DNA from: an uncultured Candidatus Micrarchaeota archaeon
GTDB taxonomy: Archaea; Micrarchaeota; Micrarchaeia; Norongarragalinales; CAINOH01
Assembly: GCA_903851445.1 (NCBI GenBank)
Contig: CAINOH010000009.1
Coordinates: 23,908-87,907 of the forward strand
Length of the DNA: 64,000 nucleotides
Direction of reading: 5' to 3'
The notes under the pieces were generated by a model that saw only the letters and a list, made by a program, of their open reading frames with translations, had not been told where the DNA came from and made no database searches. Every line of letters begins with the position of its first letter. The stretch's first letter is position 1. Both the position numbers and the translations under genes were made by a program. Below are positions 7,087-61,520 of this stretch, in pieces.

Positions 7087-7100
7087 AGGTTGATGATGCT

Positions 7101-8197: not shown

Positions 8198-8877
8198 TAG
8201 CCCGTTTGACAGGCGGGCTTTTATTTGGCGCGTCATTAATAGTGCCATGCGGCGTTGAAGGCAAAAGCCGCGCAAAACGCTTTGGGCAAGAGGGAAGAGG
8301 GATTTTGGCTGAATCTGTGACTGAGGACTCCTCCGAAAAGGCCATCGAGACAGTGGTGGACCGGCTCTACGACCTTGTCAAGGCAAGGAAGGCAATATCG
8401 GTCAGGGAAGTGTCCAAGGCGCTCTCACTCCCAGAACCCCAGACTGAGAAGCTTGCCAGGCTGCTTGAATCGTCAAAGCTCGTGCAGGTAAACTACAGCC
8501 TCTCCGACATAATCATCACAACAGTCGATGAAGCCAAGGCTGCCCCGGCAGCTTTCGCCGCAAGCAATTCCGACTCGGCCGAACGCGAAATACTGACCGC
8601 CTGCGAAGACGTTGCAAGGGCAAAAACCCTCCTTGAATTTTCCAAGCGCCAGACCGAACAGGTTTCAAGGAAGCTTGCACAGGCCGCATCACAGCAGGCG
8701 GCAAGCATCAAGGCAAAGGACGTGAGCCCGGCCTTGAGAAAGCGTCTTGAAAGCCTCGAGTCAGACGCCGCCGAGGCCAAAGGGTATGCAAACGCCGCAC
8801 TTGTGGCGGCAACGGTACTCGAGGAGGCCAGCCAGAAGCTTTCGCAGGCCGCAACACGCAAGGGTGCAAGGCAATGA
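8167..8877 (+). CDS. Hypothetical protein with a putative winged-helix segment and long coiled coil; translationally coupled to the pilus ATPase
   Basis: IETVVDRLYDLVKARKAISVREVSKALSLPEPQTEKLARLLESSKLV is wHTH-like, followed by an A/K/Q-rich coiled coil. The stop overlaps the ATPase start (ATGA). The true start is uncertain; a TTG near 8305 or GTG near 8317 is possible. Confidence 0.4.
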   Translation: MRCGKNSRKLIARLTGGLLFGASLIVPCGVEGKSRAKRFGQEGRGILAESVTEDSSEKAIETVVDRLYDLVKARKAISVREVSKALSLPEPQTEKLARLLESSKLVQVNYSLSDIIITTVDEAKAAPAAFAASNSDSAEREILTACEDVARAKTLLEFSKRQTEQVSRKLAQAASQQAASIKAKDVSPALRKRLESLESDAAEAKGYANAALVAATVLEEASQKLSQAATRKGARQ

Positions 8878-10370: not shown

Positions 10371-11269
10371 CGGTGCAAACGACAGTGGAAAGCAAGGTCC
10401 CGATGCTGCCGTTCTCGCTCGTGCCACCCCAGTTTACCTTCGAGCTTGCAAGCAAGACCCGGCCCCTTGGCACCGCAGTGCAGGCCTGGGTGCCCATCCT
10501 TGGCGACGACCTCCTGGGCGCAGGCTATGCCGACATCGACGCCGACACCTACGCAACCGCGTGCGTTCTCAACGCATTCACGAACTTCTTTGCCGTGTTC
10601 ATACTCATCGACTTGCTAGGCGCGCTCACGCTCACGCCGATGCTCCTGGTTGCGGGGCTTGCGTCCGCAGGCGTGGGCATTGCAACATTGGTCTCGTGCC
10701 TCGTCTGGCCCCAGATCATCGCAACGCAAAGGCGGCGCGCCATTGACGCGAACATGATTGCCGCAACCCGCCAGCTGCTCATACAGATACGCTCGGGCGT
10801 CCCGCTCTTCAACGCGCTCCTTTCGGTAAGCTCCGGCCACAGCAAGGTCTCGGAGGAGTTCTACAAGATTGCGGCCAAGCTCAACGCGGGCGTTGACGAG
10901 ACCGACGCGCTTGCCGAGGCGTCAGCAACCTCGCCGTCCATACAATTTCGCAAGGTGGTGTGGCAGCTTTCCAACGCGCTCAAGGTCGGCACCGACGTGG
11001 GCCTGGCGCTCGAGGCCACTCTTGGCGAGCTCGAACTCGAGCAGACCGAGCAAATCAAGAAGTATTCGCAGGAGCTCTCGCCCCTCACGATGATTTACAT
11101 GATAAGCGCAATCATCGTGCCGAGCCTGGGCGTGACAATGCTCATAGTCGTGGGCTCCCTGATGTCGTTCCCGATTCCCAAGGCAACGCTTGTCGTGGTG
11201 TTCATCGTGATGATAGGGTTCCAGGCGTTCTTCCTCAACTTCGTCGCCTCGCGCAGGCCGGTGGTGTGA
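10367..11269 (+). CDS. Pilus assembly membrane platform protein, TadB/FlaJ-like (T2SS-F domain), first half of a split platform
   Basis: Polytopic. T2SSF-like block IAATRQLLIQIRSGVPLFNALLSVSS...TDVGLALEATLGELE. Start overlaps the ATPase stop. Confidence 0.75.
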   Translation: MTVQTTVESKVPMLPFSLVPPQFTFELASKTRPLGTAVQAWVPILGDDLLGAGYADIDADTYATACVLNAFTNFFAVFILIDLLGALTLTPMLLVAGLASAGVGIATLVSCLVWPQIIATQRRRAIDANMIAATRQLLIQIRSGVPLFNALLSVSSGHSKVSEEFYKIAAKLNAGVDETDALAEASATSPSIQFRKVVWQLSNALKVGTDVGLALEATLGELELEQTEQIKKYSQELSPLTMIYMISAIIVPSLGVTMLIVVGSLMSFPIPKATLVVVFIVMIGFQAFFLNFVASRRPVV

Positions 11270-11272
11270 AAG

Positions 11273-12298
11273 ATGAAGACCAGTCGCATAATCACAAGGG
11301 CGTCCTACGTCCTGCCGCGAAAGTGGGTCGACTCGATTGGAAGGCTGCTTGTCAAGGGCGGGTTCAATACCACCAAGCACAGGTACCTGATAGGCCTTGC
11401 CATGCTTGGCGCTCTCTGTTTGGGCGCCCTGTCCAGCTTCATCTGCCTCGCTGTGATGCGCGACTATAAGTTCGCGGCGTTCTCCGGGCTCCTTATAATC
11501 ATGGCGGAAGTCGGCGGCGCGTACTTCATCCTCAAGTCAACTGCATTCCAGCGCAGCAAGAGGATAGAGAGCGTGCTCCCTGACGCTTTGCGCATCATCT
11601 CGGCAAACATGCGGGCCGGGATGACAATAGAGAACGCGCTGTGGTCCGCCGCAAGGCCCGAATTCGGCCCATTTAAGGACGAGCTGAGCAGGGTGGCTGC
11701 TGACACGTTCGGTGGGATGCCGATAGAGGATGCGCTCCTTTGCATGCCAGAGCGCGTTGACTCGCGGCTCGTGGAGCGCTCAATCGACCTGATGGTAGGC
11801 GGCCTGCGCCTGGGCGGACGCATGACCGACCTGCTTGACCACATCGCAGCTGACATCTCTTCGCGCCAGAGCCTGCAGCGTCAAATCGAGACTTCGACAA
11901 CGACCTACGCCATATTCATCGTGTTCTCGGCGCTCGTAGCCGCACCGATGCTCTTTGCAGTCTCCACGTTCTACTCGGAAATCAACGAGAAGACGCTCTT
12001 GGGTTTCACCGAGGGGATGCAGGTGAATTCGGCCGCCCGCGCACGCATAGCCTCGTCCGGCATCCCTATGCTTTTGCCATCAGCGCAGGCTGACCAGATA
12101 GGGTTTGCTGACATCCGCCTCTTCTCGCTCGGCGTAATCATCATCACCGCGTTCTTCGCATCCATAATCATCGCCCAGATAAAGGAAGGCGAGGCACACA
12201 GGGGCCTTTCCTACGTCCCCATTTTCGTCGCAGTTGCAATGACCGTGTTCCTGCTTGGCCTCTACGGGCTTGAGACCGCGTTTGCGGGAATGATATAA
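11273..12298 (+). CDS. Pilus assembly membrane platform protein, TadC/FlaJ-like (T2SS-F domain), second half
   Basis: LRIISANMRAGMTIENALWSAARPEFGPFKDELSRVAADTFGGMPIEDAL, then TM helices. 4 nt after the previous gene. Confidence 0.75.
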   Translation: MKTSRIITRASYVLPRKWVDSIGRLLVKGGFNTTKHRYLIGLAMLGALCLGALSSFICLAVMRDYKFAAFSGLLIIMAEVGGAYFILKSTAFQRSKRIESVLPDALRIISANMRAGMTIENALWSAARPEFGPFKDELSRVAADTFGGMPIEDALLCMPERVDSRLVERSIDLMVGGLRLGGRMTDLLDHIAADISSRQSLQRQIETSTTTYAIFIVFSALVAAPMLFAVSTFYSEINEKTLLGFTEGMQVNSAARARIASSGIPMLLPSAQADQIGFADIRLFSLGVIIITAFFASIIIAQIKEGEAHRGLSYVPIFVAVAMTVFLLGLYGLETAFAGMI

Positions 12299-39775: not shown

Positions 39776-39895
39776 GCCTCGCTTGCCTTTTCGCCCTTGT
39801 TATGCCCAGGCTTAGCTTTGCGAAAGCAATAAAACCCGCCAACCCAATTAGGATTAGCCCGCCAAAAGCAAGAAATGCAGTTTGGAAGCCTTACT

Positions 39896-42163
39896 ATGGA
39901 AACTGTAATGATTATCACCGAAAAGCCGCGCGTAGCTGAAAAGATGGCAGCTGCGCTTGCGGAAGGCCCGGTCAAGCAATCGGCAGGCGCGGGCGTCAGG
40001 TCGTACGAGCTTGCCCGCGGCGGAAAGAGGATACTCATCGCACCAGCTGTTGGCCATGTATACTCGCTCAAACAGAAGGAGGCCGGCGGACGCTACCCGG
40101 TTTTTGACATCGAGTGGGTCCCAGCCTACGAATCAAACGAGTCAGCGGCGTTCACAAAAAAATACCTAGAATCGATCAAGAAGCTTGCAAAGAACGCGGA
40201 CACGGTTGTGAACGCGTGCGACTGGGACATCGAGGGAAGCCTCATCGGAGGCAATATCATCCGCTATGCGGTGAAGAAGCCGGCAAAACGGATGCTCTTT
40301 TCAACGCTTACAAAGGAGGACCTGGTTGACGCGTACTCGGACCTGAAGCCTCTTGACACACCCCAAATAGACGCGGGCGAGGCGCGACACTACCTTGACT
40401 GGTACTGGGGCATCAACACGTCGCGCGCGCTCATGTCGGCCATAAAGAAGGCTGGGATTTTCCGCATCATGAGCATAGGACGGGTCCAGGGTCCGGCGCT
40501 TGCAATACTCTCACAGCGCGAGCTTGAGATACAAAAGTTCGTGCCAGAACCATACTGGACAATCGCAGCAGTGCTCAAGGGCGTGGAGTTTTCCTGCGAC
40601 GAAGGCAACATTTTCGACGAGAAGAAAGCAAAGGAGATTGCCGACAAGGTCACAAGGGCGGCAAAGGACAAGGCGCTTGTCGAAAATGTCGAGGAGAAAG
40701 AGTTTGCCCAGAACCCGCCGTTCCCATTTGACCTGACCTCGATGGAAATCGAGGCTTACCGCACGTTCGGCTTCAAGCCGTCGATGACGCTTTCGCTTGC
40801 GCAGGACCTGTACGAGGCGGCTCTCATCAGCTACCCGCGCACGTCCTCGCAAAAGTTGCCTGCAAAGCTGAACCTGAAGAAAATCATTTCAGACATCGGA
40901 AAGAACCCCGCTTACTCCGGATTGTCCGGCAAGCTCCTTGGAAAGAACAAGATCGTCCCCCGCGAGGGCGAAAAGGAGGACGCTGCGCACCCGGCAATCC
41001 ACCCGACCGGAATGATCCCGAGCGGCCTGAACCCGCACCAGGCAAAGCTTTACGACCTTATAGTGCACAGGTTCCTTTCGTGTTTTGCAGACCCTGCAAA
41101 GAGGGCACGCATGAACGTTGCAGCAAAAATCGGCGACGTCGGCTTCTCCGCAGGCGGCTCGCGGACAGTCGAAAAGGGCTGGTTCGAGTTCTATGAAAAA
41201 TACGTTGACCTGGAGGAAGAGGTCCTTCCCAAGTTCGAGGTCGGCGAGCGCGTTCCTGTTGACAGGCACGAGCTTCTAAAGAAGATGACCAAGCCTCCAA
41301 AGCGATACACCGAGGCGTCGCTTGTAAAGAAGCTCGAGGACGAGGACCTTGGGACGAAGGCAACCCGCTCGGAAATAATTGAGACGCTTTTCCGGCGGGG
41401 TTACGTTTCAGGAAAGAGCATCGAGGTTTCCGCGCTCGGGCTTTCGGTGTACGAGGCGCTTATGCACCACGTTGACGAGATTTTGAGCGAGCAGCTCACC
41501 CGCGACTTCGAGAAGGAGATGGAGGACATCCAGTCCGGCAAAATCACCAAGGAAAAGGTGATTGCCGAGGGAAAGGCCGCGCTTGAGAAAATCCTTGAAA
41601 AGTTCCGCACCAAGGAAGAGAGCATCGGAAAGGAACTGGTTGACGCTTTGAAGCAGACGCAGAGGGAAGAGAGCGTGCTCGGGCCGTGCCCTGTTTGCGC
41701 AAAGGAAGGAAGACAAGGCCAGCTCCAAATCAGGAAATCCCGCTTCGGCCTCTTTGTCGGCTGCGGCGCGTACCCTGTCTGCAGGAACCTGTACCCCCTT
41801 CCGAAGATGGCGCTCATCAAGAACACGCAGAAGATTTGCCCCGAGTGCGGCACGCCAATAGTCACAGTTATCCGCAAGGGCAAGCGGCCGTTCAGCATGT
41901 GCATCGACACCAAGTGCAAGACCAAGGAATCTTGGGAAAAGAAGAGCTACAACGTCAACAACTCGGACGGCACGGTTACGGAAGCGAAGAACAAAATCGT
42001 TGCACAGCCGGATGCGACTACCGGCGCGCAGGAAGCTTCAGGGAAAAAGCCAGAAGCGGTTGCGAAAGAAACACCGACAACGAAAAGTATGCAACCAAAG
42101 GCAACAAAGAGGCCCGCAGCCAAGAAACCCACTGCAAAAACACCAAAGCCGAAAGCGAAATAG
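39896..42163 (+). CDS. topA: DNA topoisomerase IA (TopA/Topo III-like) with C-terminal zinc ribbons and a Lys-rich tail
   Basis: TOPRIM N-terminus MIITEKPRVAEKMAAAL...RILIAPAVGHVYSL; the topo IA catalytic-tyrosine region is not located in the sequence. Two C4 zinc ribbons (CPVCAKEG...CGAYPVC, CPECGTP...CIDTKC). Tail ...KRPAAKKPTAKTPKPKAK. The ORF could start at 39875. Confidence 0.88.
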   Translation: METVMIITEKPRVAEKMAAALAEGPVKQSAGAGVRSYELARGGKRILIAPAVGHVYSLKQKEAGGRYPVFDIEWVPAYESNESAAFTKKYLESIKKLAKNADTVVNACDWDIEGSLIGGNIIRYAVKKPAKRMLFSTLTKEDLVDAYSDLKPLDTPQIDAGEARHYLDWYWGINTSRALMSAIKKAGIFRIMSIGRVQGPALAILSQRELEIQKFVPEPYWTIAAVLKGVEFSCDEGNIFDEKKAKEIADKVTRAAKDKALVENVEEKEFAQNPPFPFDLTSMEIEAYRTFGFKPSMTLSLAQDLYEAALISYPRTSSQKLPAKLNLKKIISDIGKNPAYSGLSGKLLGKNKIVPREGEKEDAAHPAIHPTGMIPSGLNPHQAKLYDLIVHRFLSCFADPAKRARMNVAAKIGDVGFSAGGSRTVEKGWFEFYEKYVDLEEEVLPKFEVGERVPVDRHELLKKMTKPPKRYTEASLVKKLEDEDLGTKATRSEIIETLFRRGYVSGKSIEVSALGLSVYEALMHHVDEILSEQLTRDFEKEMEDIQSGKITKEKVIAEGKAALEKILEKFRTKEESIGKELVDALKQTQREESVLGPCPVCAKEGRQGQLQIRKSRFGLFVGCGAYPVCRNLYPLPKMALIKNTQKICPECGTPIVTVIRKGKRPFSMCIDTKCKTKESWEKKSYNVNNSDGTVTEAKNKIVAQPDATTGAQEASGKKPEAVAKETPTTKSMQPKATKRPAAKKPTAKTPKPKAK

Positions 42164-42196: not shown

Positions 42197-42845
42197 GATG
42201 CCGAAGACAACCATTTACCTTATCCGGCACGCCGAGACCGTTGGCAACGCCGAGGGAATCATACAGGGCCAGACTATGGGCGGCAAGCTCTCAAAGCACG
42301 GCATCCGCCAAGCAGAGGCGTTGGGAAAGTGGGCCGGGCAAAACAAAATCGACGCAGTATACGCAAGCCCGCTCTCTCGCGCCATCGAGACTGCAAAAAT
42401 CGCGTTCCCGGATGCCGAGCCAAAGCAGGTGGACGGGCTGATGGAGCAGGATGCAGGCGAGCTGTCGGCAAAGACAGCAGGCGAGGCATTCAAGATATTC
42501 CACAAGATGAACCTGTCCAAGGCGCGCGAGCCCGAACGCACAATCGACTACTACCTCCTGCGCTACGGCCACGAGATTGGCGGCGAGCGCGACGTAGAGG
42601 AGCGCGGGATGAAAGCCCTTGAAAAGATTGCAAAGGAGAACGCAGGAACGCCGGTCGCGGTTGTCTCGCACGGCAACCTCATCAAGTGCGTGCTGTGCGG
42701 AATCCTCGGGACGCCCCCAACGTACGAAAACTTCCGCAACATGGTGCAGGAAAACTGCTGCATAAACACCATCGAGTTCAATACCGAAGGCCCAAGCATA
42801 GTGGCTATAAACGATACCAGCCACCTTGATTCTGTTGCAAAATGA
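42197..42845 (+). CDS. Histidine phosphatase superfamily (phosphoglycerate-mutase-like) protein
   Basis: MPKTTIYLIRHAETVGN... (RHG/E catalytic motif) and downstream His. The stop overlaps the next start. Confidence 0.75.
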
Positions 42846-43669
42846 AAATCGCACTTGACGCCTCAAAGACCGCCCAGCAGAACGCCGCAGAATACTACTC
42901 GAAGGCAAGCAAGCTGCGCGCAAAGGCCGATGGCGCGAAGAAGGCGCTTGAGGATACGCGCAGGCTCATCGCAAGGGAGGAAAAGCGCGAGCAGTACAGG
43001 AAGCCCGAAGACGATGCGGCAACTTCCAAGAAAAAGTTCAGGCTCAAGCGCGAGCTCGAGTGGTACGAGAAATACCGCTGGTTCTACACAAGCTCCGGCC
43101 TCCTTGTTGTTGCAGGACGCGACGCGGGCCAGAACGAGCACGTGTTCACAAGGCACGCGGAAAAGGGCGACCTGTACTTTCACGCCGACGTGCACGGCGC
43201 GCCAACCACCATACTCAAGGAAGGAAACACCGACAAGGCGACCGGGCAGGACAAGCTGGAAGCCGCGCAGTTTGCAGTCAGCTATTCCTCGTCGTGGAAG
43301 AACGGCTTTGGCAGCGCGGACGCGTATTGCGCGCCAGTTGAGAACGTCTCTCGCCACGCAAAAGCCGGGGAGTACGTGGCAAAGGGAGGGTTCATCATAA
43401 CGGGAAAACGCGAGTATTACCGCGGGACAGCGCTTGGCCTGCGTATCGGCCTTGACGAGAAGGAGCGGGTCGCGGCCGTTCCCGCAGTATCGACGCGGGT
43501 TCTCAAGAACGCCGTTTCCATCCTCCCTGCCGGCACAAAGGAAAAGGGCGCGGTTGCAAAGGAAATAATGGCGCGGCTTGGCACCGAAAACCTTGACGAC
43601 CTGCTTTTGGTGATTCCTGCTGGCAAGTCGGAAGTCGAGCGCGCCGCAAGGCCTGTTGGAAAGGCGTAA
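42842..43669 (+). CDS. NFACT-R (DUF814) domain protein: short Rqc2/NEMF/FbpA-like C-terminal module lacking the NFACT-N domain
   Basis: Coiled-coil N-terminal part, then RWFYTSSGLLVVAGRDAGQNEHVFTRHAEKGDLYFHADVHGAPTTIL, which matches the DUF814/NFACT-R core. Only 275 aa, against ~600+ for full archaeal NEMF homologs. Confidence 0.6.
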   Translation: MKIALDASKTAQQNAAEYYSKASKLRAKADGAKKALEDTRRLIAREEKREQYRKPEDDAATSKKKFRLKRELEWYEKYRWFYTSSGLLVVAGRDAGQNEHVFTRHAEKGDLYFHADVHGAPTTILKEGNTDKATGQDKLEAAQFAVSYSSSWKNGFGSADAYCAPVENVSRHAKAGEYVAKGGFIITGKREYYRGTALGLRIGLDEKERVAAVPAVSTRVLKNAVSILPAGTKEKGAVAKEIMARLGTENLDDLLLVIPAGKSEVERAARPVGKA

Positions 43670-43771: not shown

Positions 43772-45916
<2,145 letters not shown>

Positions 45917-46558: not shown

Positions 46559-48382
46559 ATGTCTCGTCGCGGCCAGGGCGCATTTGAGTACCTTCTGATG
46601 CTTGGAGGAACAGTACTAATCGCAGTAGTAGTCATCATAATGGTACAAGGTTCCGCCCAGAACGCGAACAGCACGCTCAACGAGTCAACAAACGACTATT
46701 TGGCATACATAAATAGTGGAATCAACAATGCGATTGCAACCACTCCAACGCCTATTGTAACTGTTTTGCCTTCGTCAACCCCAACCACCAGCCCAACGCC
46801 ATCCTCAACTCCCACGGTAACTCCAATGCCTACCACTACCCCGACTGCAACGCCAACGGCTACTCCTACGCCCACATCAATGCCTACTACTACGCCAACT
46901 GCAACAGCTACCGCAACGCCAACTGCTACGCCCACACCCACTACGAGTCCGACGCCAATTCCTACTGCAACGTCCACGCCAACACCTACTGCTAACCCAA
47001 CAGCAACGCCAACCGCAACGTCCACGCCAACACCTACTGCTAACCCAACCGCAACGTCCACGCCAACACCTACTGCTAACCCAACAGCAACGCCAACTGC
47101 TACGCCCACTCCCACCGCAACCCCCGTGACAACTGGAAGCGCCATCATAACGACGAGCCCAGGAGGGGCGCAGGTAATGGTCGATGGCCAGCAGAAGGGG
47201 GTGTCAAGTCCTAGTCTCACAGTTTCTTCCCTGGCGCCGGGAACACACGTCGTGAGGGTTTCAATGCAGGGCTATTTTGACGCGTCGCTTAACGCTGTCG
47301 TACAACTCGGACAGGCCACGCCGGTGACGATTAGCCTCATCTCGCTCTCCGTCCCCACGCCAACACCGGTGCAGGTACCAGCAAGCCCGAAACTGACGTG
47401 CGATTACTCCTTTGCGGCTATCCCGCCGGTGACGAAGACTATCGCGCGGTCGGGAAGCGCCGCGGGAGTGCGCATCGGGTTCTCCGAGGATTTCGGCGCA
47501 ATCGCCACGAGCTTCGAACTCGTAAATCCCGCGAACGGCGCCTCAGTCAACGTGCTAGAGTCACGCAGCGGAGCGGGTTCGGCGTGGCAGTACACTGGCC
47601 AGGCTACCGCTTACGACGGTGGCGGTGCCCTCATCAACCAGGCAGCCGGCAACTCCCTCGGCTCCCAGTGGGGGTACCAGAGCGTGCTCAATGTGAACAC
47701 TTCGGCGACGGGAGTAACGGCATCGGCAGCGAACTGGGTCCCAAATCCTTCAGACACGCTCAACGGTGACGGAACGTCTCCCTGTGCGTCCCAGTATCCC
47801 CCGGCAGTCTTTGACCTCGGCAAGCCCTCGATGAGCGTCAGCGACATTGCGACGTCGCTGGGGACCGCACTCAACATCACGAGCACATATACGCTTCAGT
47901 CGACCATCGACCAATATTGGAAAATGTACGTTCCCGGCGAAGCAATCTACATGAACAGGCAGGTAGCCCGCGACGCCAACCTGCGCATGTACATCCTAGG
48001 ACCAGGCTGGACGGAAGGTCCCATTCGGCCGTACTACGACAATTTCACCATAGCCCACGCCACGTACGTGCGCCCTGTTCCACAGTGGGGGGTATGGATG
48101 ATTACCGCAGATGTCCAGTACACTGCGTTCGTGTGGAACGTGGGTGGAAAGGACGTCGGCGTCGTGCTTCCGGGCGCGAAGGGCTCCCAGCGGCTGGTGA
48201 ACAATACCTACTGCTCCAACGAGGCGGATTACAGCTGCGGCAGCATGGACTATGGTTTTTGGGAACAACTCGATCAGAGTTCCTCATATCCTAACGGGGC
48301 AATCCGCAGCTACTCCTTCGGCTACCTTGTCGGCTCGGTGCCCCAGCTTGAAGCCATCATAGGCAGGTCCATCACGGGTTAA
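46559..48382 (+). CDS. Large pilin-adhesin: class III signal peptide + Pro/Thr linker + PEGA domain + globular C-terminal domain
   Basis: MSRRGQGAFEYLLMLGGTVLIAVVVIIMVQG...; ~135 aa TPTATP-type linker; SPGGAQVMVDGQQKGVSSPSLTVSSLAPGTHVVRVSMQGYFDASLNAVVQ matches the PEGA motif; ~370 aa C-terminal domain. Confidence 0.7.
   Translation: MSRRGQGAFEYLLMLGGTVLIAVVVIIMVQGSAQNANSTLNESTNDYLAYINSGINNAIATTPTPIVTVLPSSTPTTSPTPSSTPTVTPMPTTTPTATPTATPTPTSMPTTTPTATATATPTATPTPTTSPTPIPTATSTPTPTANPTATPTATSTPTPTANPTATSTPTPTANPTATPTATPTPTATPVTTGSAIITTSPGGAQVMVDGQQKGVSSPSLTVSSLAPGTHVVRVSMQGYFDASLNAVVQLGQATPVTISLISLSVPTPTPVQVPASPKLTCDYSFAAIPPVTKTIARSGSAAGVRIGFSEDFGAIATSFELVNPANGASVNVLESRSGAGSAWQYTGQATAYDGGGALINQAAGNSLGSQWGYQSVLNVNTSATGVTASAANWVPNPSDTLNGDGTSPCASQYPPAVFDLGKPSMSVSDIATSLGTALNITSTYTLQSTIDQYWKMYVPGEAIYMNRQVARDANLRMYILGPGWTEGPIRPYYDNFTIAHATYVRPVPQWGVWMITADVQYTAFVWNVGGKDVGVVLPGAKGSQRLVNNTYCSNEADYSCGSMDYGFWEQLDQSSSYPNGAIRSYSFGYLVGSVPQLEAIIGRSITG
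46740..47147 (+). repeat. Imperfect tandem DNA repeats (36/48-bp units, acgtccacgccaacacctactgctaacccaac...) encoding the Pro/Thr linker
   Basis: Units begin at 46970, 47018 and 47054. These produce the antisense [12 protein letters not shown] at 46696..47220. Confidence 0.7.
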
Positions 48383-48439: not shown

Positions 48440-49510
48440 TCAGCGGAACGGCCGTTCGTTACGCCGCAGCCTGCGAAGCGACACCGCATCGGGCCCGACT
48501 TTTGCGCACAGCCGCGCGTACGCCACTTCGAGCTCCTTCGGGTCCATCGCAGCTCGCAAGTCCGCCTCAATCAGGATTGCAGGGTATGCATAGCGCGAGT
48601 TGCCCTTGCACAGGCCGCAGATTATCTTGCTTGCAGCTTCCGCTTTCGTGTAGTCGGAAAACTCTAGCCGGAGCGGCCGGTCGTATTTTACGGCCTTGAG
48701 GTATGTTGCTGCGGGGGTGGTGCGGCACAGGTCACGGCCCAAGTCCTGGCGTTCAATCCGCACAAGGCCACTGCGCTCATTCTCCTCCAACGCCATTGAA
48801 AGGAATGCCGAGTCGTTTGTCGATGACAGGGATTTTGCGTGCTCGGAATAGAAATCTGAAAGACTTTCGGATTTTCGCAAGGCATCTAGGTAGTTGCGGC
48901 TCTTGGTGTCCTTCACAACCCCAACAAGAGTTACGTCTGCTTCGCTGCACTCGGAGTACAAAAAGCGGTATTCCGCAAGCAGCCGTTCGAACCCGTCGAA
49001 CGCGGCCGAGTCCTTCGGCGGCCGGTCCTGCGGGTTTGGGAAGATGCTGCCGTCAAGGAAGACCATCGAAGGCAAGAAGAGCTTGACCGACTCCCTTGCG
49101 CGGCCGATTTCCGAGCGCAATCGGATTATCGAGTCGCGCTGCACCGTGTCGGACTCGTCAAACGAGTCAAGGAGCGCGGTCTCGAAGCCATCAAGCCCCG
49201 AAGGGTGGCAGGCCTTGCGGCACACCAGGCCGTTCTCGTAGCCGAATGCCGTGCACACGGCGCGGAAGAGCACGAGCTCACAGGACTGGTAGGTTTCGGA
49301 AACTATGCCGCCATCTATTGCCGCGATGGTGCCGGAAAAACTTGCGTTCGGCTCGCAGGGAACGATTGCGGGCTCGCCAAGCAACGCGGCCTCCGGGGCG
49401 GTTGCCTGAGATTTTCGCAAGGCGCTTGCCGCAGCGGATAGGCCGGACTCTAGCGTGCGTATCCTTGCTATCACCTCTGAGGTGTTGTCCTTCAACATTG
49501 CCGAGAGCAC
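48440..49510 (-). CDS. NurA-like nuclease domain protein (tentative), orphan
   Basis: IAAIDGGIVSETYQSCELVLFRAV resembles the NurA N-terminal catalytic Asp motif ((I/V)AA(I/V)DGS). No herA/mre11/rad50 adjacent. Confidence 0.4.
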   Translation of the reverse strand: MLSAMLKDNTSEVIARIRTLESGLSAAASALRKSQATAPEAALLGEPAIVPCEPNASFSGTIAAIDGGIVSETYQSCELVLFRAVCTAFGYENGLVCRKACHPSGLDGFETALLDSFDESDTVQRDSIIRLRSEIGRARESVKLFLPSMVFLDGSIFPNPQDRPPKDSAAFDGFERLLAEYRFLYSECSEADVTLVGVVKDTKSRNYLDALRKSESLSDFYSEHAKSLSSTNDSAFLSMALEENERSGLVRIERQDLGRDLCRTTPAATYLKAVKYDRPLRLEFSDYTKAEAASKIICGLCKGNSRYAYPAILIEADLRAAMDPKELEVAYARLCAKVGPDAVSLRRLRRNERPFR

Positions 49511-49643
49511 CCGGGCGCGTTTTTACAAGCCGGACCTAGATGACTTGACGGGATTGTAATTTATTACGGACTGCCAGGGGCGGTTTCCAGTGATTATACC
49601 CCCCTGCACATCGTTTATATCCCCGCGGCGAATGTTGATATTT

Positions 49644-50096
49644 ATGCCCAACCACGGCCAAGGCGCCTTCGAATATCTCCTGATGCTTGGCGGCGTCGTG
49701 CTCGTCGCAGTAATCGTCATAATCATTATGCAGGGTTCGGCTTCCGGGGCAAACAACGCGCTGAACACATCCGCTTCGAGTTACGGCTCGTTTATCACGA
49801 CCGGCGTAGAGAACGTGCTTACGACGGGGTCGGTGAATGGGGCGTCACTCGTTAAATTGACCTGCACCGCAGGCACGGACACCAGCGATATGATTAGCAA
49901 CAATGTAAACTGCAACTCGGCGTGCCAGGCCGCAGGGTATTCAAGCGGGACGACGGTATGCGCCGTCCCTGGCTGCAGCGCGTCATGCAAAAACTGCAGG
50001 CAGATTTCCTGCTATGGCACAGCCTGGAACATAATCACCGACGACTGCTCCAAACCGGGTTCTTGCAAAATTGACAATTGCTACTGCTCCCCCTGA
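49644..50096 (+). CDS. Cysteine-rich pilin (class III signal peptide)
   Basis: MPNHGQGAFEYLLMLGGVVLVAVIVIIIMQGSASGANNALN...; 16 Cys in the C-terminal 90 aa. Confidence 0.65.
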   Translation: MPNHGQGAFEYLLMLGGVVLVAVIVIIIMQGSASGANNALNTSASSYGSFITTGVENVLTTGSVNGASLVKLTCTAGTDTSDMISNNVNCNSACQAAGYSSGTTVCAVPGCSASCKNCRQISCYGTAWNIITDDCSKPGSCKIDNCYCSP

Positions 50097-50168
50097 TTCA
50101 GCAAAGATGCCGGCTTTTTGATGCGCCTGCGGCGATTCCTTTTTATTGCCCGCGACAATGGTCTTTCT

Positions 50169-51728
50169 ATGAAGCTGCGCGGCCAGACTGCCCTTGAATA
50201 CCTGCTGATTCTTGCCGGAAGCATAATGATAGTCATCGTCACCTCAAGCGTGCTCAACGGCGTGATGGCACCCGGGATGGAAATCGTGGGCAACAACAGC
50301 ACGCCCCTGCTGTGGCCCCCGTCAGGTGAGTGCGGCCTTGCCGCAACCGTTTACGGTTCCTCTGCAACGGGATACTCCGGGGCCTTCTGCGCTGTTGGAA
50401 CGCCAAACCCAACCCCTGTTTTTCCACCTCAAGGCAGCTCGGTAACGTGGTTCTGTAATGTAACAGATGGCGGGTACAACGCGTCATGTTCAGCGTCAAG
50501 GGCAGCAACATCCACCCCGACGCCTACTCCGACACCATTACCAGTTAATGGTGCTTGCGGAATCAGCAGCGCATACGCACTCACGGCAACAACCAGCGGG
50601 CTCTGCTCAAGCGGAACGGTCTACTCATTCGCCGGCACGGGGCCGTGGACTTGGTTCTGCAATGGCACAAACGGCGGTACGGACGCGAGCTGCACAGCAA
50701 CAGTAATAGTGGACGGCACCTGTGGAACTTCAAACGGGGCAAACCTTACCGCAGCGCCAACAACAAACCTGTGCTCCAATGGGACTAATTCCAGCGTCTC
50801 CGGCACAGGACCGTGGACGTGGTTCTGCAATGGCACGAACGGCGGCACGAACGCCAGTTGCTGGGCAAACGTCATCATCAACAACGGCGGTGCCTGCGGA
50901 ACAGCTGCAAAGAGGTATGCGTACAATGTCACATCATATGGCACTGACACCATCTGCAATGCCGGAATCGCTTCTCCCTCCAGCCCGGCATTCCCAACCC
51001 AAGGAGCGTCAGTTTCTTGGAGGTGCATAGAAGTTAACCTGCCTGAAATTACGATTAATGTTTGCACAGCTTCAAGAGCAGCAGCCCCTGTTAATGGTGC
51101 TTGCGGCACTGCCTCAAAGACATATGTGTACACTGCCACCAGCTATGGAACGGACACGTTCTGCGCCAATGGCACCGCCAGCCCAGCAAGCCCGGCATTC
51201 CCGGCCCAAGGACAAACAATTCCTTGGACTTGCGTGGGAACAAACAACGGAACCAACGCATCCTGTTCCGCCACCAGGCCGGCCAAGATTAATGGTGAGT
51301 GTATAACTTCTGCCTACTTTTCAAACCTTAATGTTTTCAGCTGCGGATATTCCGAAATGCACGATAAAATCGGCAGCCCCGTACTCAGTTGGTGCGTGGC
51401 TGGAAGTATGACTAGTTACACTGGCGGATATACTGGACCTTGGACATGGAAATGCCTCGGAGCATACGGCGGAACCAATGCGTCCTGCTCTGCCTCTCAT
51501 ACAAGTGAATATCATCCGAGTTTTACTTGCGGTTACTCTGGACGCACAACTGCCGCTTGCGTAGCCGCCGGAGGGTACGTTGACTGGTCCGTGTGTGACG
51601 GTTGCGGGTTCTGCAAAAGTTACAGTGCAGCACGTGGTTCGGGCTACTGTGATTTCCTGACAATTGCTAATGTTCCTGCTATTCCTTATGGTTATTTTGA
51701 TAATGGCGTATATTGGGGTTGCATATAG
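50169..51728 (+). CDS. Large pilin-adhesin with six tandem Cys4 repeat modules
   Basis: MKLRGQTALEYLLILAGSIMIVIVTSSVLNG...; modules of ~55-65 aa, e.g. NGACGISSAYALTATTSGLCSSGTVYSFAGTGPWTWFCNGTNGGTDASCTA, repeated six times. Confidence 0.65.
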   Translation: MKLRGQTALEYLLILAGSIMIVIVTSSVLNGVMAPGMEIVGNNSTPLLWPPSGECGLAATVYGSSATGYSGAFCAVGTPNPTPVFPPQGSSVTWFCNVTDGGYNASCSASRAATSTPTPTPTPLPVNGACGISSAYALTATTSGLCSSGTVYSFAGTGPWTWFCNGTNGGTDASCTATVIVDGTCGTSNGANLTAAPTTNLCSNGTNSSVSGTGPWTWFCNGTNGGTNASCWANVIINNGGACGTAAKRYAYNVTSYGTDTICNAGIASPSSPAFPTQGASVSWRCIEVNLPEITINVCTASRAAAPVNGACGTASKTYVYTATSYGTDTFCANGTASPASPAFPAQGQTIPWTCVGTNNGTNASCSATRPAKINGECITSAYFSNLNVFSCGYSEMHDKIGSPVLSWCVAGSMTSYTGGYTGPWTWKCLGAYGGTNASCSASHTSEYHPSFTCGYSGRTTAACVAAGGYVDWSVCDGCGFCKSYSAARGSGYCDFLTIANVPAIPYGYFDNGVYWGCI

Positions 51729-57374: not shown

Positions 57375-58979
57375 TCACGACCCCGTGTATCCGCCGTCGG
57401 TTATCGTCCAACCGTTGTTTGCAATTAGCGTGGTGTTCCTTGCCGTGACCGAGGCGGAAGAGTAACGGGATTTGCCGCCATCAAAAGTAACTCCCGACTG
57501 AACCGAATGGCTTGCCCAGCCGTTGAGGAGAGCGTCGTAATTGGTGGTTGACAGCGTCACGCCGGAGAACATCCCGCGCATATCAGTTACACTTTTTGTG
57601 TTCCATTTGCCTATCGGCTGGTTGAAAGCAGACGCGTTGGCAAACATATACTTCATTGTCCAGACTTTCCCCATATCCCAGCCGCCAATAGGCTGGTTGA
57701 ATGAATGCGCGTTGGCAAACATCCAGTCAATGGAACTGACGCTGCTCGTATTCCAGCCCGAGACGTTGCCATTGAACGCCGACGCGCCGGAAAACACGCC
57801 AGACATGAATATGGCATTGCGCGTATCCCATCCGCTTAAGTTCTGGTTGAATGCAGGCGCGCCCGCAAACATTCCATTCATCATTACTACGCTTCTGGTG
57901 TTCCAGTTGCCTATCGGCTGGTTGAACGAAGACGCATACCCAAACGTGCTGTACATATCTACTACGCGGCTGGTGTTCCAATTGCCTATCGGTTGGTTGA
58001 ACGAAGACGCCCAACCAAACATGTTATTCATGGTTATGACGCTGCTGGTATCCCAGCCGGTAATGTTGCCGTTGAAGGAGGTCGCATTGTAGAACATGAA
58101 GTCGAGCGAGGTCAGGCCGGTAAGGTTGAGGCTGTCCGAACCTATGAAGTTCATGTTTGAGCAGCCGTAGAAGGTGCCGCAGGAGCTTGCGGTGTACCTG
58201 AAAACGCCATAGCAGCCGCCGCATTCGGCGTCTGGGGGGGAGCCCGGAGGGCAGATGTCGCTCGAACAGCCCAAGGTGCCCGAGTAGGCGCGGATGTAGG
58301 GATTGTAATTTCCGATGTTCAAGTCGCCCCAGTGGGTGATGTTGATTATCTTCAGCTTGTCCCCGCCATTGTTGAACGAAAAGCTCGTTTCGTTCGTGTT
58401 GGTGACGTTAATCGTGTAAACTCCCGGCGAGACATACACGTGCGTGGTGATGTTAGAGTCTGACCTGCCGTCGCCCCAGTTTACCGAGAAATAACCTGTT
58501 ATCGGGAGCACGATTGTCGTGGAGTTGCTGCCGGTGCCACCGATCTTGCGCGTGTCCCAAACCGCGCTGAATGGCGAAGGCTTTGGAGTCGGGCTGGGCG
58601 TGGGGCTTGGAGTGGGCGTTGCGGTAGGTGTTGCAGTAGGCGTCGCAGTCGGCGTGGGACTGGCCGTTGGTGTTGCAGTAGCAGTGGGTGTAGGAGTTGC
58701 AGTAGGAGCGGGTGTCGGACTCGGCGTAGGTGTGGGCGTAGCAGTTGGCGTTGCGGTAGTTGTTGCTGTCGGAGTAGCAGTAGGCGTTGGAGTTACTGTG
58801 GATGGGGTTATGCCGTAGTTCTGTACTAACTCCCAATAGGTGCTTGACTGATTAGTAACGGAATTGTTTGCCTGGCCTTGCGAGGCCTGCACGACCATCA
58901 GGGTGATGGCTGCAATGAGCACGCTGCCGCCTATCATCAACAGGTATTCGAATGCGGCCTGGCCGCGGGAAACTGACAT
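57375..58979 (-). CDS. Pilin-adhesin fusion: class III signal peptide + Pro/Thr linker + DUF285-type tandem repeats
   Basis: [33 protein letters not shown]...; ~80 aa TPTATP linker; repeated ~26-aa units F(G/A)[24 protein letters not shown] characteristic of DUF285 repeats. Confidence 0.7.
58572..58808 (-). repeat. Low-complexity tandem DNA repeats encoding the Pro/Thr linker of the DUF285 pilin-adhesin
   Basis: Produces the antisense [13 protein letters not shown] (58519..58818). Confidence 0.65.
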
Positions 58980-59016: not shown

Positions 59017-59021
59017 AGAGA

Positions 59022-59057
59022 CCCCCTCCCGATGCGGGAGGGGGCTTCACCTTTTTT
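59022..59057 (-). terminator. Perfect 10-bp stem hairpin (ccccctcccg-atg-cgggaggggg) flanked by T-runs; candidate terminator of the upstream five-gene membrane-protein operon
   Basis: Arms 59022..59031 and 59035..59044 are exact reverse complements; tttttt at 59052-59057. Confidence 0.4.
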
Positions 59058-59136
59058 CCAAGGGGGGCTTGGAGGATTTGATGAAGGATAAATGCCGCCA
59101 AAAGGGCGGCGAAAGGAAAGCGCGCAATGGCCTTGC

Positions 59137-59520
59137 TTACTGTCCCCACATGACCTTACGTTTGGATGTCAGACGCTCCTTGCGGAACTCTCCCTGCATG
59201 TGGTAGTATGAAGCGCCGAAGAGCGCAGCTACCCCGACAATGGGAACGTACATGAGGGTGACGACCCCGATAATGGCGAGCACCAGCGAGTACGAACGGA
59301 AACGCAAAGCCTCCTTCCACAAAGGAAGGTAGCTCTGGGTGTAGGCGTAACGGTTGGTGAGCTTCATCATCGGCTCCTTTCCGTCTGCCGGGACGCTCGT
59401 CATCTGGATGTCCCAGGTCTTTTCCGACGGAGCCTGGCCAGTGGGAGCGACTGCGTCGCCCGAGACGATTTCGTCCGTGTTTTTGGGATTCAGCTTTGAA
59501 AGCATGTCCTGTATTGCCAT
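59137..59520 (-). CDS. Small membrane protein, paralog family member (P5)
   Basis: Soluble N-terminus with ...PMMKLTNRYAYTQSYLPLWKEALRF, then two TM helices. Confidence 0.45.
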   Translation of the reverse strand: MAIQDMLSKLNPKNTDEIVSGDAVAPTGQAPSEKTWDIQMTSVPADGKEPMMKLTNRYAYTQSYLPLWKEALRFRSYSLVLAIIGVVTLMYVPIVGVAALFGASYYHMQGEFRKERLTSKRKVMWGQ

Positions 59521-59533
59521 ATTGCATCCCCCT

Positions 59534-60148
59534 CTACTGCGCTACTATTACCGAGCGCCCCTTCTCCCAGGTGACTTCGGTCCCGAACCCGTTCAGGTGG
59601 TGGCCCCAGTAGTGGCCCCAAAGGTAGGCGAACACAACTGAAATCAGCGGGCTTATGAAAAACGTGACTATCATTAGGATGAAGCACGCCATGGACCAGA
59701 AGAAGCTGTTGTACACTCCTGACCAGCTGTCGTAGCTTTCAATCCCGTTGAACTCGAACCCTAGACGCTTTCCGAGGAAGTGGCCACGCGTGTCGATGTT
59801 GAACATGTGCATTGGCCGCATTCCGGCGGTCATCGGGTCCTTCGGGCCCATGATGTTGCCCGAACCGTCGGGCATCTCCTCGCCTTCCTTGTTAGTGGGC
59901 ACGAACATGGGAATGTCGTAGTTCTCGTTGCCTGCGGGCTGCCCTGCCTGCGCGGGAACAGCAGCGGGCTTTGCCGATGCGGAAACTGCGCTGACCTTTT
60001 CGGAGTAGACTACCTTGTTGTTTCCGACCTTGCCCGCAGTGACCGGGATGGGCCACGACGCCGGGCCGTTGTAGATGTATTTTATCTCCGCCGGAGTGCC
60101 AGCAGCGTTCTTTGCCTGTGAAAGGTTGAGCAATGCCATTTGTCTCAC
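59534..60148 (-). CDS. Small membrane protein, paralog family member (P4)
   Basis: ...YDIPMFVPTNKEGEEM...MRPMHMFNIDTRGHFLGKRLGFEFNGIESYDSW..., then TM helices. Start overlaps the P3 stop. Confidence 0.5.
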   Translation of the reverse strand: MRQMALLNLSQAKNAAGTPAEIKYIYNGPASWPIPVTAGKVGNNKVVYSEKVSAVSASAKPAAVPAQAGQPAGNENYDIPMFVPTNKEGEEMPDGSGNIMGPKDPMTAGMRPMHMFNIDTRGHFLGKRLGFEFNGIESYDSWSGVYNSFFWSMACFILMIVTFFISPLISVVFAYLWGHYWGHHLNGFGTEVTWEKGRSVIVAQ

Positions 60149-60393
60149 AACAGAAACTGCGCCATAAGCGCGTAAATCAGGCAGCCGAAGGCCACCACGT
60201 AAATTGCGGAGTCCGAAAGGCCGAACGGCCGTCCGAGCGAGTGGTCGCTGTAAATCTCGGCCATCGTGGGCGTGTCGGTCGTGTCAAGGACGTGGACCAA
60301 CCCCGCGTCCTCCAGCCACATCACGGCCTGCACAGTAAGGGGCGCGTAGTGGAACGGCGCCTTGTTCTTGTACGGGTTCTTGCTTTCTGCCAT
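60145..60393 (-). CDS. Small membrane-anchored protein (P3, 82 aa)
   Basis: C-terminal TM helix; same operon. Confidence 0.35.
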   Translation of the reverse strand: MAESKNPYKNKAPFHYAPLTVQAVMWLEDAGLVHVLDTTDTPTMAEIYSDHSLGRPFGLSDSAIYVVAFGCLIYALMAQFLL

Positions 60394-60409
60394 AATGCCC
60401 TTTCGCCTT

Positions 60410-60883
60410 TTAGTCTACTGTCATGATTGTACGCTGTACTCCGAACACCCAGGCTCCGAAGCGCAGTGAAGCGCCCATTGCGCGAAAACGCGCTGCAAGG
60501 GCGAACATCAAAAGCGACCCTGCCGGGAAAACCGTGAAAGTGTAGATTCCTGCAACCATCCAGAACGTGAAAATCGACCAGGCGATTTTTTCCTTGCGCC
60601 ACATGTCGATGTATTCCATTACGAAGCCGTGGCGCGTGTTCATGCGCATGACCGGGAAGTCCTTCGGGTTGACTTCGCATCCTGCGGTTGTCACGGTTGT
60701 GCGCGGCTCGGGCACTCCGCCCTTTTGCCTTGCGACCGGCGAGGCTGTGGTCTCGTTCTTCTGCTTTTGGTAAGCGCCGTGATACGCGCTCTCCTGGATG
60801 CCGGGCGCTATGGGCGCCTTGCCGTATCCCGCAGGGTCGCCGAAGCCGGAATGTTCCTGTACTGGAGTGTGCACTGAGATCAT
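60410..60883 (-). CDS. Small membrane protein, paralog family member (P2)
   Basis: ...FPVMRMNTRHGFVMEYIDMWRKEKIAWSIFTFW..., then TM helices. Confidence 0.45.
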   Translation of the reverse strand: MISVHTPVQEHSGFGDPAGYGKAPIAPGIQESAYHGAYQKQKNETTASPVARQKGGVPEPRTTVTTAGCEVNPKDFPVMRMNTRHGFVMEYIDMWRKEKIAWSIFTFWMVAGIYTFTVFPAGSLLMFALAARFRAMGASLRFGAWVFGVQRTIMTVD

Positions 60884-60893
60884 CTAAATCAAC

Positions 60894-61277
60894 TTATGTT
60901 GCCTCGTAGAGCATACGAACTTTCCAGTTGTTGCTTACGTAGAAGTCCTGCCACACGAAGCGGCCGTATGCGAAGCCCGATGCAAGGCCGAATGCGCCTG
61001 CCACGAATATGTTACGCGAGATAAGAACGACTGCCATTATCGCAAGGAAGATTGCAGCTGCCTTGGCTACCTGCCATTCCTTGTAGATTCCGATTGACTC
61101 GTTGAGGTAGTCCTGCCTGCGCTTGATGTGCATGACTGAGTTCCCGTGGGTATCAGTAGGCACGAACATAGGTATGTGGTTGTAGCCGCGCTTCGGGACG
61201 GTCTCGTCCTGCGTGTGGGCCTGCCCATTAGTGAGCATTTCCCTGCGGGCCTTTGAAAGCGAATAGTCTTTTTCCAT
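60894..61277 (-). CDS. Small membrane protein, paralog family member (P1)
   Basis: MEKDYSLSKARREMLTNGQAHTQDETVPKRGYNHIPMFVPTDTHGNSVMHIKRRQDYLNESIGIYKEWQVAK..., then TM helices. The internal ATG is chosen. The extended track ORF to 61403 is AT-rich and contains a TATA-like aaatatataaa at 61323-61333. Confidence 0.5.
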   Translation of the reverse strand: MEKDYSLSKARREMLTNGQAHTQDETVPKRGYNHIPMFVPTDTHGNSVMHIKRRQDYLNESIGIYKEWQVAKAAAIFLAIMAVVLISRNIFVAGAFGLASGFAYGRFVWQDFYVSNNWKVRMLYEAT

Positions 61278-61520
61278 GTCGAACAAATCCCCCTCGATTT
61301 GCGTAACAGATTTAGGAAACCCCAAATATATAAACTGTTCGGTAGTAACAAACATTAATATTTGGTAGACAATTGACGTAGTTTGGAAACTGCCTAAAAA
61401 CAATATTCGTCAAAAGACGTATTTTGGAGGTTTGCGCCTCTGGAAAGGGGAAGGCAAGCAAGGTGGCGTTTAGGCTGCCGGAGCTACTGATTATATTTTC
61501 CAAGCCCCAGTAACACTATC

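Follow-up and report, generated by a model that had tools for sequence, protein, structure and literature searches.

A 64,000-nucleotide stretch of contig CAINOH010000009.1 from an uncultured Candidatus Micrarchaeota archaeon (the window, to which all coordinates without a locus name refer) contains an operon of five genes, P1 to P5, for small membrane proteins. We lean towards the view that this operon encodes one cytoplasm-facing membrane complex composed of several different subunits. A novel membrane complex or small-subunit assembly had also been proposed in the original prediction, which was made from the letters of the window, and it remains the best reading of the cluster, with the complex itself inferred.

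The five genes follow one another on the minus strand. P1 (60894–61277, 127 aa), P2 (60410–60883, 157 aa), P4 (59534–60139, 201 aa) and P5 (59137–59520, 127 aa) encode hairpin subunits that we designate A, B, A' and B' type, respectively, and P3 (60145–60393, 82 aa) encodes a fifth subunit unrelated to the other four. The intergenic gaps from P1 to P5 are, in order, 10, 16, 5 and 13 nt, and one promoter lies upstream, so that the tight operon of five minus-strand genes described initially is confirmed in its coordinates. The spacing given at that time (10–16 nt, or overlapping stop and start codons) holds for three of the gaps, but P3 and P4 are 5 nt apart and would overlap only with a disfavored GTG start of P4. 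That alternative GTG, at 60148, would give a 4-nt overlap with P3; since the P4 orthologs all begin with MALLNL or MSLLNL (alignment A2), the start of P4 is the ATG at 60139. The ATG of P1 is backed by its orthologs and by an upstream Shine-Dalgarno-like sequence, GAGGGGGAT (61287–61295, minus strand), which lies 9 nt 5' of the start and is kept in close relatives. The identical nine bases, GAGGGGGAT, precede the start of P5 at Shine-Dalgarno distance (59535–59527). Ratios of non-synonymous to synonymous substitution rates (dN/dS), from comparisons with unsaturated dS only, are 0.07–0.25 across the five genes, with ∼0.15 for P1, ∼0.2 for P2 and 0.07–0.09 for P5; P5 and P1 are under the strongest constraint. 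The five open reading frames are real genes under purifying selection.

The original prediction was to fall if the reading frames were not conserved in relatives, and it had recommended a check of synteny. In 11 distinct genomic contexts, the five genes stand in the same order, at protein identities down to 25–30% and G+C contents of 37–57%. Per protein, homolog searches returned only 11–13 clusters (90% identity), and the name Candidatus Micrarchaeia archaeon is attached to two of them. In the close loci L002–L018 (L-numbers denote loci fetched from other contigs, L002–L030), P1 and P5 are 83–92% identical and P2–P4 65–81% identical to the window proteins; for P1, the values with close orthologs are 86–91%. 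In the intermediate loci L019–L023 and the P0011 contig, these values are 60–70% for P1 and P5 and ∼41–49% for P2 and P4. The distant loci L025, L027 (Candidatus Micrarchaeota archaeon) and L028 have the same five genes, linked by profile searches only, and L030, at 37% G+C, contains the most divergent cluster, again with all five. A six-gene variant is found in L029 (6857–9094), where a second P5-type gene (94 aa, 8001–8285) stands between P3 and P4. The L029 cluster is followed by a cysteine-rich membrane protein of 223 aa with thioredoxin-like features, as read by eye.

Searched in full with HMMER and the P5 profile, 1.84 billion representatives yielded 47 proteins (50%-identity clusters) at E ≤ 0.001. 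All 47 are 68–128 aa long and are laid out alike, without fusion to another domain in any of them. Neither the rest of the window nor the flanks of eight scanned loci contain a further member of the family. A scan of GTDB species genomes gave two loci, using peptide patterns that were specific to the close clade. Three source records of cluster-bearing sequences are named Micrarchaeia or Micrarchaeota, and a gene on the L030 contig has an identical NCBI copy labeled Candidatus Marsarchaeota, a label to be taken with caution. The operon is vertically inherited and has so far been seen essentially only in Micrarchaeota. Members of the DPANN archaea such as the Micrarchaeota have tiny genomes and obtain lipids from their hosts, and genes that are kept by all such archaea are likely to be important; here, a complete five-gene module with its own promoter element is retained across the lineage while its neighbors change.

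The relationship between the subunits is faint at the level of single sequences. BLASTP among the window's own five proteins gives weak matches (E ∼0.006–0.09 in a database of five sequences), and hhalign on profiles of close orthologs gives P = 2e-5 for P1–P4, over a 14-column PMFVPT motif, as well as for P2–P5. It is clear in the profile-profile comparison that includes divergent orthologs, which covers ∼80–93 columns from the first motif to the C-terminus. It relates P1 to P5 at 98.1% probability (P = 1e-13, 92 columns), P2 to P5 at 98.2% (P = 4e-14), P1 to P4 at 97.9% (P = 3.5e-13), and both P1 to P2 and P4 to P5 at 94.3% (P = 1e-7 each). The direct comparison of P2 with P4 is not significant (3%), and these two are connected only via other members. 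In a largely independent comparison, 56 P5-type proteins score 13–49 bits on the P1 and P2 models, 52 of them having been absent from the building of the subfamily models. Judged by these profiles, P1, P2, P4 and P5 are true paralogs, with five of the six pairs at 94–98% probability. P3 is unrelated to them (hhalign probability <1%).

P1 and P4 have in common an extra N-terminal helix of the form L-x2-L-x-Q/K-x-K, and P2 and P5 form the closest pair. Two subtypes can thus be assigned from the sequences, A (P1 and P4) and B (P2 and P5), and the gene order therefore reads A-B-X-A'-B', with P3 in the center. The order resembles the outcome of an ancient event in which an A-B pair was duplicated around P3. 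In L029, the order is A-B-X-B''-A'-B'.

The common plan of the four paralogs was derived from an alignment of 29 sequences from the four subfamilies in seven genomes (alignment A7). The N-terminus is variable and disordered; a hydrophobic motif of a few residues reads MFVP(T) in P1 and P4 and (T/S)SVPAD in P5 and is degenerate in the window copy of P2. It is followed by a membrane-proximal core, P-x-hydrophobic-x4-(T/R)-R-x2-(Y/F)-(L/I)-x3-(I/L)-x2-W-(K/R)-(E), in which the arginine is nearly invariant. The core corresponds to a helix of the 'TRxxYL...WKE' type that adjoins the membrane and precedes a hydrophobic hairpin. The uncharged span of this hairpin is 27–40 residues (mean ∼33–35) in all four subfamilies and is broken in the middle at Pro, Asn or Gly. 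Its flanks are mostly net positive, most clearly in P5 and on the C-terminal side of P1 and P2; those of P4 are neutral. The basic tail ends in R/K-x-hydrophobic-hydrophobic-x-x-x, with an arginine at position −7 from the C-terminus in all four window paralogs.

Each subfamily elaborates this plan with its own motifs. P1 contains IPMFVPTDTHG and KRRQDYLN..YKEW, a hairpin with the turn (P/S)RN and a small-residue zipper, AGAFGLASGFAYG, and the C-terminal end RMLYEAT. P2 has a long low-complexity N-terminus, the core PVMRMNTRHGFVMEYIDMWRKEK, an FPAGSL turn in the hairpin and the end RTIMTVD. P4 starts with the helix MALLNLSQAK; the motif YDIPMFVPTNKEG and a variable insert come next, then the core RPMHMFNIDTRGHFLG...W, the hairpin with its (I/V)SP turn, and the end RSVIVAQ. 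P5 contains WDIQMTSVPADGKEP, the core MMKLTNRYAYTQSYLPLWKEALRFR, a hairpin with the central Pro93, and the end RKVMWGQ. P3 differs in consisting of a soluble N-terminal part and a single C-terminal transmembrane segment (tail-anchored by hydropathy); it has an invariant LE[DE]xG motif, in which E28 and G31 are invariant among 11 orthologs (alignment A6).

The AlphaFold2 model of P5, based on the 56-sequence alignment, has a mean predicted local distance difference test score (pLDDT) of 77.4 and consists of two helices, residues 57–88 and 93–117, with block means of 89–95 over residues 61–110. The helices are joined by a four-residue turn at the nearly invariant Pro93, and the N-terminal 55 residues are unordered in the monomer. 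The model of P1, from a shallow alignment, contains helices 47–85, 90–116 and 118–126 (mean pLDDT 60.7), and its hairpin agrees with that of P5, at lower confidence. Each paralog is thus predicted to be a helical hairpin with an uncharged stretch of ∼33 residues broken mid-way. These models and the profile comparisons bear out the claim of four paralogs among the five proteins, each with a soluble motif ahead of its membrane part, and the motifs described for them are confirmed (IPMFVPT in both P1 and P4; R...Y/F...W-K/R-E as the core of all four). Of the one or two transmembrane helices that were said to follow the core, the membrane segment stands, but it is better described as a single tight helical hairpin, to which the C-terminal arginine at −7 can be added.

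None of P1–P5 has a signal peptide; their N-termini are long and hydrophilic, and their only hydrophobic segments are C-terminal. Because of these features and the mostly net-positive flanks, both ends of the hairpin are likely to be cytoplasmic, with almost nothing exposed outside the cell. The hydrophobic part of each helix is ∼13–17 residues, which is short for two full membrane crossings. P1 has conserved polar hairpin tips (P-R-N, Q-N or N-Q-P), which suggests that they may still reach the outer interface.

Two-helix subunits with both ends inside are also found in channels, pores and holin-like complexes (cf. MscL, CorA, MCU and class II holins), and we considered whether P1–P5 form such a complex. 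The hairpin with its predicted cytoplasmic ends, the basic C-termini and the encoding of several paralogs together would fit, as would the small-residue packing motifs, which are typical of helix bundles. However, the hairpin lacks conserved polar or charged residues with which to line a pore (alignments A5 and A7), and the hydrophobic helices are only ∼13–17 residues long. There is furthermore no similarity to channel or holin families in Pfam, PHROGs or the PDB, no lysis or phage context, and no P1-type protein in viral contigs. We therefore consider a channel or holin unlikely.

The original prediction had recognized no family for these proteins, and its interpretation was to be abandoned if homology placed them in a characterized one. 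We searched for such a placement and found none: Pfam, NCBIfam, PHROGs, PADLOC, the PDB and Foldseek against the PDB all lacked a significant match. Pfam-A gave nothing significant for the five window proteins, the 56 P5-type proteins, the 29 superfamily members or 11 P3 orthologs. The only library match near threshold was to DUF7454 (PF24253), which covers P2 residues 63–89 (27 residues) at E = 0.014 and 15.7 bits, compared with a cut-off of 27 bits; it is found in none of seven P2 sequences, the window copy included, at E ≤ 0.01, and is read as chance. Matches to the Pfam families DUF2415 and DUF3433 were below threshold and not recurrent in orthologs. In NCBIfam, where nothing else was significant, CydB (PRK15028) scored 14.5 bits against a cut-off of 681. 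PHROGs returned only noise (E 0.03–0.25), PADLOC had no match at E ≤ 0.1, and the search of IMG/VR viral contigs for P1-type proteins found none. Matches of four profiles to PDB sequences (Piezo1, E = 0.11; ribonucleotide reductase beta; BRIL-fusion G-protein-coupled receptors; PsbW) were non-significant and driven by the composition of the membrane segments. With the P5 model, Foldseek found no match in the PDB at E ≤ 0.001, its top matches (Vtc1, PorLM, AhlB and ferritin) being generic helical hairpins. The cluster was not found described in the literature consulted (PMC9258230, PMC8204110 and bioRxiv 10.64898/2026.07.16.738847).

The module thus appears to lie outside every known family compared here. 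It defines two new protein families, the hairpin family with its four subfamilies and the P3 family, whose diagnostic motifs can be used for annotation models. Small membrane proteins of no known family are frequent in DPANN genomes, and this module stands out among them by the deep conservation of all its genes and of its promoter motif. Proteins of these archaea evolve fast and many of their core functions look 'missing', so that P1–P5 could be extremely diverged small subunits of a universal membrane machine, such as a translocon or insertase accessory, an ATP synthase proteolipid or a respiratory anchor; the location of the operon among folD, purN, pyrG, folC and radA and its strong promoter would be in keeping with this. 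Against such an origin, neither a profile nor a fold signal was obtained from the libraries searched, the membrane-embedded carboxylate that a proteolipid needs is not conserved, and no catalytic or large partner subunit is encoded alongside at any locus. To our knowledge, no archaeal complex has a subunit pattern of four paralogs and a tail-anchored protein. Overall, a diverged universal machine seems quite improbable, and a separate complex of P1–P5 is the reading that we retain.

The promoter region of the operon is conserved as well. A TATA box, TTTATATA (61327–61334, minus strand), is located ∼50 nt upstream of the P1 ATG, and its position is kept in all orthologous loci. The archaeal consensus pattern TTTATA[TA]A occurs only here on both strands of the window (128 kb), and other promoters of this genome must therefore use weaker or different boxes. 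A motif, TTTGTTACTACCG (61340–61352, minus strand; consensus TTTGTTACYACCR, short form TTTGTTACYACCG), lies 4–6 nt upstream of the TATA box. It is present 5' of the P1 ortholog in the window, L002–L009, L011, L013–L016, L018–L021, L025, L029 and L030; in L028 it is present as two copies in tandem, and the copy of L027 is degenerate. Every locus with upstream DNA conforms to TTTGTTAC(T/C)ACC(G/A), a spacer of 4–5 nt and AGT(T)TATA(T/A)A, and the distance from the motif to the start codon is 36–63 nt across loci. The core 10-mer GTTACTACCG occurs once in the window, where matches with one mismatch are at chance level.

Since the motif and the TATA box are conserved 5' of P1, P1 heads the transcription unit. 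The retention of the motif across 37–57% G+C, next to proteins at 25–30% identity, is strong evidence that it is a dedicated and ancient control element, and TTTGTTACYACCR is probably the binding site of a dedicated regulator. An Orc/AAA-like gene adjoins the cluster in L020, which raised the possibility that the motif is an origin recognition box (ORB). That gene is not a conserved neighbor, and the motif bears no known resemblance to ORB elements; this interpretation was rejected. An archaeal cis-regulatory motif kept from 37% to 57% G+C is a rare case and makes the regulator experimentally findable.

The 3' end of the operon is also structured. A terminator-like hairpin, GCCGCC-CTTTT-GGCGGC followed by ATTTAT (59094–59110, minus strand), lies 27 nt after the P5 stop codon; by eye (alignment A8), its stem sequence varies between orthologous loci while the pairing is kept. 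It is followed by a conserved element of ∼42 nt with nested hairpins, CTTCATCAAATCCTCCAAGCCCCCCTTGGAAAAAAGGTGAAG (59045–59086, minus strand), with the pattern CTTCATCAAATCCTCCAAGCCCCCCTTGGAAAAA.AG.TGAAG. This element is nearly invariant in the window, L004, L005, L007, L010, L012 and L014–L017, with differences at several positions in L016; its core, CCTCCAAGCCCCCCTTGGA, is also found in L019 and, shortened by one C, in L020. It occurs once in the window and travels with the 3' end of the operon. RNAalifold predicts an outer and an inner stem of 6 bp each, with two compensatory changes in L019. Rfam gave only noise on the spacer between P5 and the next gene, a DUF285 pilin gene, and a C/D-box small RNA was rejected by eye, as neither strand has a proper D box. 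The element could be a structure of the 3' untranslated region, a processed small RNA or a protein-binding site. A second terminator-like hairpin (59021–59045, minus strand), with an 11-bp stem GCCCCCTCCCG/CGGGAGGGGGT followed by CTCTTATTTA, immediately precedes the promoter region of the DUF285 gene. At the corresponding place, L019 and L020 carry other hairpins, each followed by a T-run.

The genes around the operon belong mainly to housekeeping (folD, purN, pyrG, folC and radA). pyrG follows the operon within ∼0.1–2 kb in eight of the 11 contexts, always as a separate unit; radA is upstream in three contexts, and folD is upstream only in the closer clades. The folate/pyrG context noted initially is thus correct in that such genes are nearby, but it reflects housekeeping synteny at the regional level and does not form a single transcription unit. 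The interval between P5 and pyrG is a variable insertion slot that contains a different gene in each lineage: the DUF285 pilin in the window (57375–58979), a radical SAM/SPASM protein in L004 (7144–8256), an [FeFe]-hydrogenase in L019 (10308–11399), a PIN toxin-antitoxin pair in L020 (5199–5821), a 299-aa protein of unknown function in L022 (1626–2525) and an 88-aa tail-anchored protein in L024 (605–871). S-adenosylmethionine synthetase is among the other genes found after P5 elsewhere. Further housekeeping surroundings in the window (43778–45916, 48440–49510, 39875–42163 and 42842–43669) include a Cdc48-type AAA ATPase, NurA, a type IA topoisomerase and a short NFACT-R protein that is separated from its N-domain. 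These genes have no link to the operon.

Viral and defense islands typically carry small membrane proteins that lack annotation, and in L020 the cluster is adjoined by an nSTAND/AAA ATPase in addition to the toxin-antitoxin pair, which would suit cargo of a mobile element, provirus, defense or toxin-antitoxin system. Such an origin is extremely unlikely, given the stable place of the cluster between housekeeping genes across deep divergence and the strong purifying selection on it. It has no PHROG, PADLOC or viral-contig match, its G+C content is unremarkable compared with the flanks, neither an integrase nor repeats are found nearby, and the window contains no tRNA.

The occupant of the slot in the window had led to the suggestion that the operon is linked to a DUF285 pilin-adhesin or a surface filament. 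The DUF285 protein (57375–58979, minus strand) does carry a class III signal peptide (PF04021 match), and P1–P5 might in principle assist or assemble a filament of the type IV pilus kind, serving as platform or anchor for class III signal proteins of this kind. The cluster lies directly upstream of this gene in the window, and L002–L004 have a class III signal protein ∼5 kb away. In L030 (6656–12324), a 142-aa soluble protein comes next after the cluster, then a prepilin peptidase (Peptidase_A24/Arc_PepC) and six small proteins, five of which have pilin-like N-termini (by eye, without a Pfam match). However, linkage to genes of the pilus type (pilins, prepilin peptidase, T2SSE ATPase, T2SSF platform) is confined to two of the 11 contexts, the window and L030; the other nine have no pilin-related neighbor, and the slot after P5 is occupied there by unrelated genes. 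DUF285 is a neighbor only in the window, where two terminator-like hairpins and a separate TATA-like box, TTATTTATAG, part it from P5. As class III signal proteins are frequent in the window (46559, 49590, 50118 and 57375), adjacency to one needs no explanation beyond chance. The pilus ATPase and platform genes of the window (8874–12298) are 47 kb from the operon, and P1–P5 have neither a class III signal (no matches to PF04021) nor an extracellular domain. The suggested link did not survive this comparison: the DUF285 neighbor is incidental to the operon, and P1–P5 are probably not part of its system. A role in filament assembly is accordingly improbable.

The window is rich in genes for such proteins. 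It encodes at least four class III signal-peptide proteins in 64 kb (46559–48382, 49590–50096 and 50118–51728 on the plus strand, 57375–58979 on the minus strand), among them one with a PEGA domain and one with DUF285 repeats and a Thr/Pro-rich linker; the DUF285-repeat protein also gives a weak, sub-threshold PKD-like match. A type IV pilus-like locus (6511–12298, plus strand) begins with four consecutive open reading frames without Pfam match (191, 182, 186 and 236 aa), followed by a T2SSE-type ATPase (8874–10370) and two T2SSF-type platform proteins (10367–11269 and 11273–12298).

We return to the complex that we favor. The five genes would be transcribed from one predicted strong and specifically regulated promoter, where a dedicated DNA-binding factor would read TTTGTTACYACCG beside the TATA box. 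Two A-type and two B-type hairpin subunits, together with the tail-anchored P3, would then assemble in the membrane, facing the cytoplasm. The hairpins would pack side by side via their small-residue motifs, and the cytoplasmic peptides (the N-terminal 'MFVP', the 'TRxxYL..WKE' helix and the C-terminal R-x-hydrophobic-hydrophobic-x-x-x) would join subunits or dock a soluble partner. Our best guess for the role, by analogy, is a constitutive membrane scaffold or wedge, reticulon- or Mic10-like, that would organize or shape the membrane of very small cells. Alternatively, the complex may anchor a cytoplasmic factor to the membrane. If it is a membrane scaffold or docking platform, it would represent a new kind of archaeal membrane-organizing machine and offer a handle on the envelope of ultra-small symbionts.

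A more elaborate picture, possible but rather doubtful, is that of an abundant, Micrarchaeota-specific architecture complex, in which A and B hairpins form a ring or lattice via their cytoplasmic terminal motifs, with P3 as a cap. It would shape or stabilize the highly curved, lipid-scavenging membrane of ultra-small symbionts, or hold a machine of the cytoplasm, for instance CTP synthase, at the membrane, and would be switched by a factor at a phylum-wide TTTGTTACYACCG operator. CTP synthase is named as a candidate because pyrG adjoins the cluster in eight of the 11 contexts.

Several points weigh against our interpretation. Co-assembly is inferred solely from the structure of the operon, the paralogy of its products and their joint conservation, and the role as scaffold or wedge is a guess that draws on one structural analogy, namely the length of the hydrophobic span. 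The conserved Arg-Asn tip of P1 in the close clade argues for a fully spanning rather than a half-inserted hairpin, and a hairpin of 33 residues could be long enough for two crossings of a thin membrane and so make a channel. The arrangement in L030 is suggestive and leaves room for a pilin link. Finally, the restriction to Micrarchaeota is provisional, as few members have source names and one distant locus has a Marsarchaeota-labeled twin.

The nearest known proteins in layout are membrane hairpin proteins of several kinds, from each of which the subunits differ in a defining trait (family membership, a membrane carboxylate or a phage context). Among them, class II holins and Hig1/Rcf1 resemble the hairpin subunits in size (∼90–130 aa), in their two membrane helices with both ends inside, and in their charged C-terminus. 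They differ in that no PHROG or Pfam match, lysis cassette or phage context is found here, nor a P1-type match in viral contigs; unlike holins, the subunits belong to a conserved five-gene cellular operon with strong purifying selection and housekeeping neighbors. The c/K subunits of ATP synthases share the tight two-helix hairpin with a short polar turn (P-R-N in P1) and Gly/Ala-rich packing. The turn of the bacterial c subunit is R-Q/N-P. No conserved Asp or Glu is present in the hairpin columns (alignments A5 and A7), and there is no match to Pfam ATP-synt_C. The proteins described here have, in contrast, long cytoplasmic termini with motifs, and other ATP synthase genes are not alongside.

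A close likeness is also seen to the reticulon and REEP (DP1/Yop1) proteins and Mic10, small proteins with one hydrophobic stretch of ∼30–35 residues that is folded at a central breaker. Both ends lie on one side of the membrane, as predicted for the hairpins here, and small-residue (Gly/Ala) motifs are present, such as the zipper AGAFGLASGFAYG of P1. Such Gly/Ala motifs drive oligomerization in reticulon, REEP and Mic10 proteins. A reticulon-type layout is seen in the uncharged span of 27–40 residues and in the AlphaFold2 hairpin of P5 (57–88/93–117), with the membrane side predicted. None of the 5 + 56 + 29 sequences matches the Pfam families Reticulon, TB2_DP1_HVA22 or Mic10, and these families are eukaryotic or mitochondrial. 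In contrast to them, the operon combines four paralogs with a tail-anchored fifth protein, each with conserved cytoplasmic peptide motifs. If the architecture complex outlined above is real, it would be an archaeal counterpart of the reticulon- and MICOS-type membrane shapers, invented independently.

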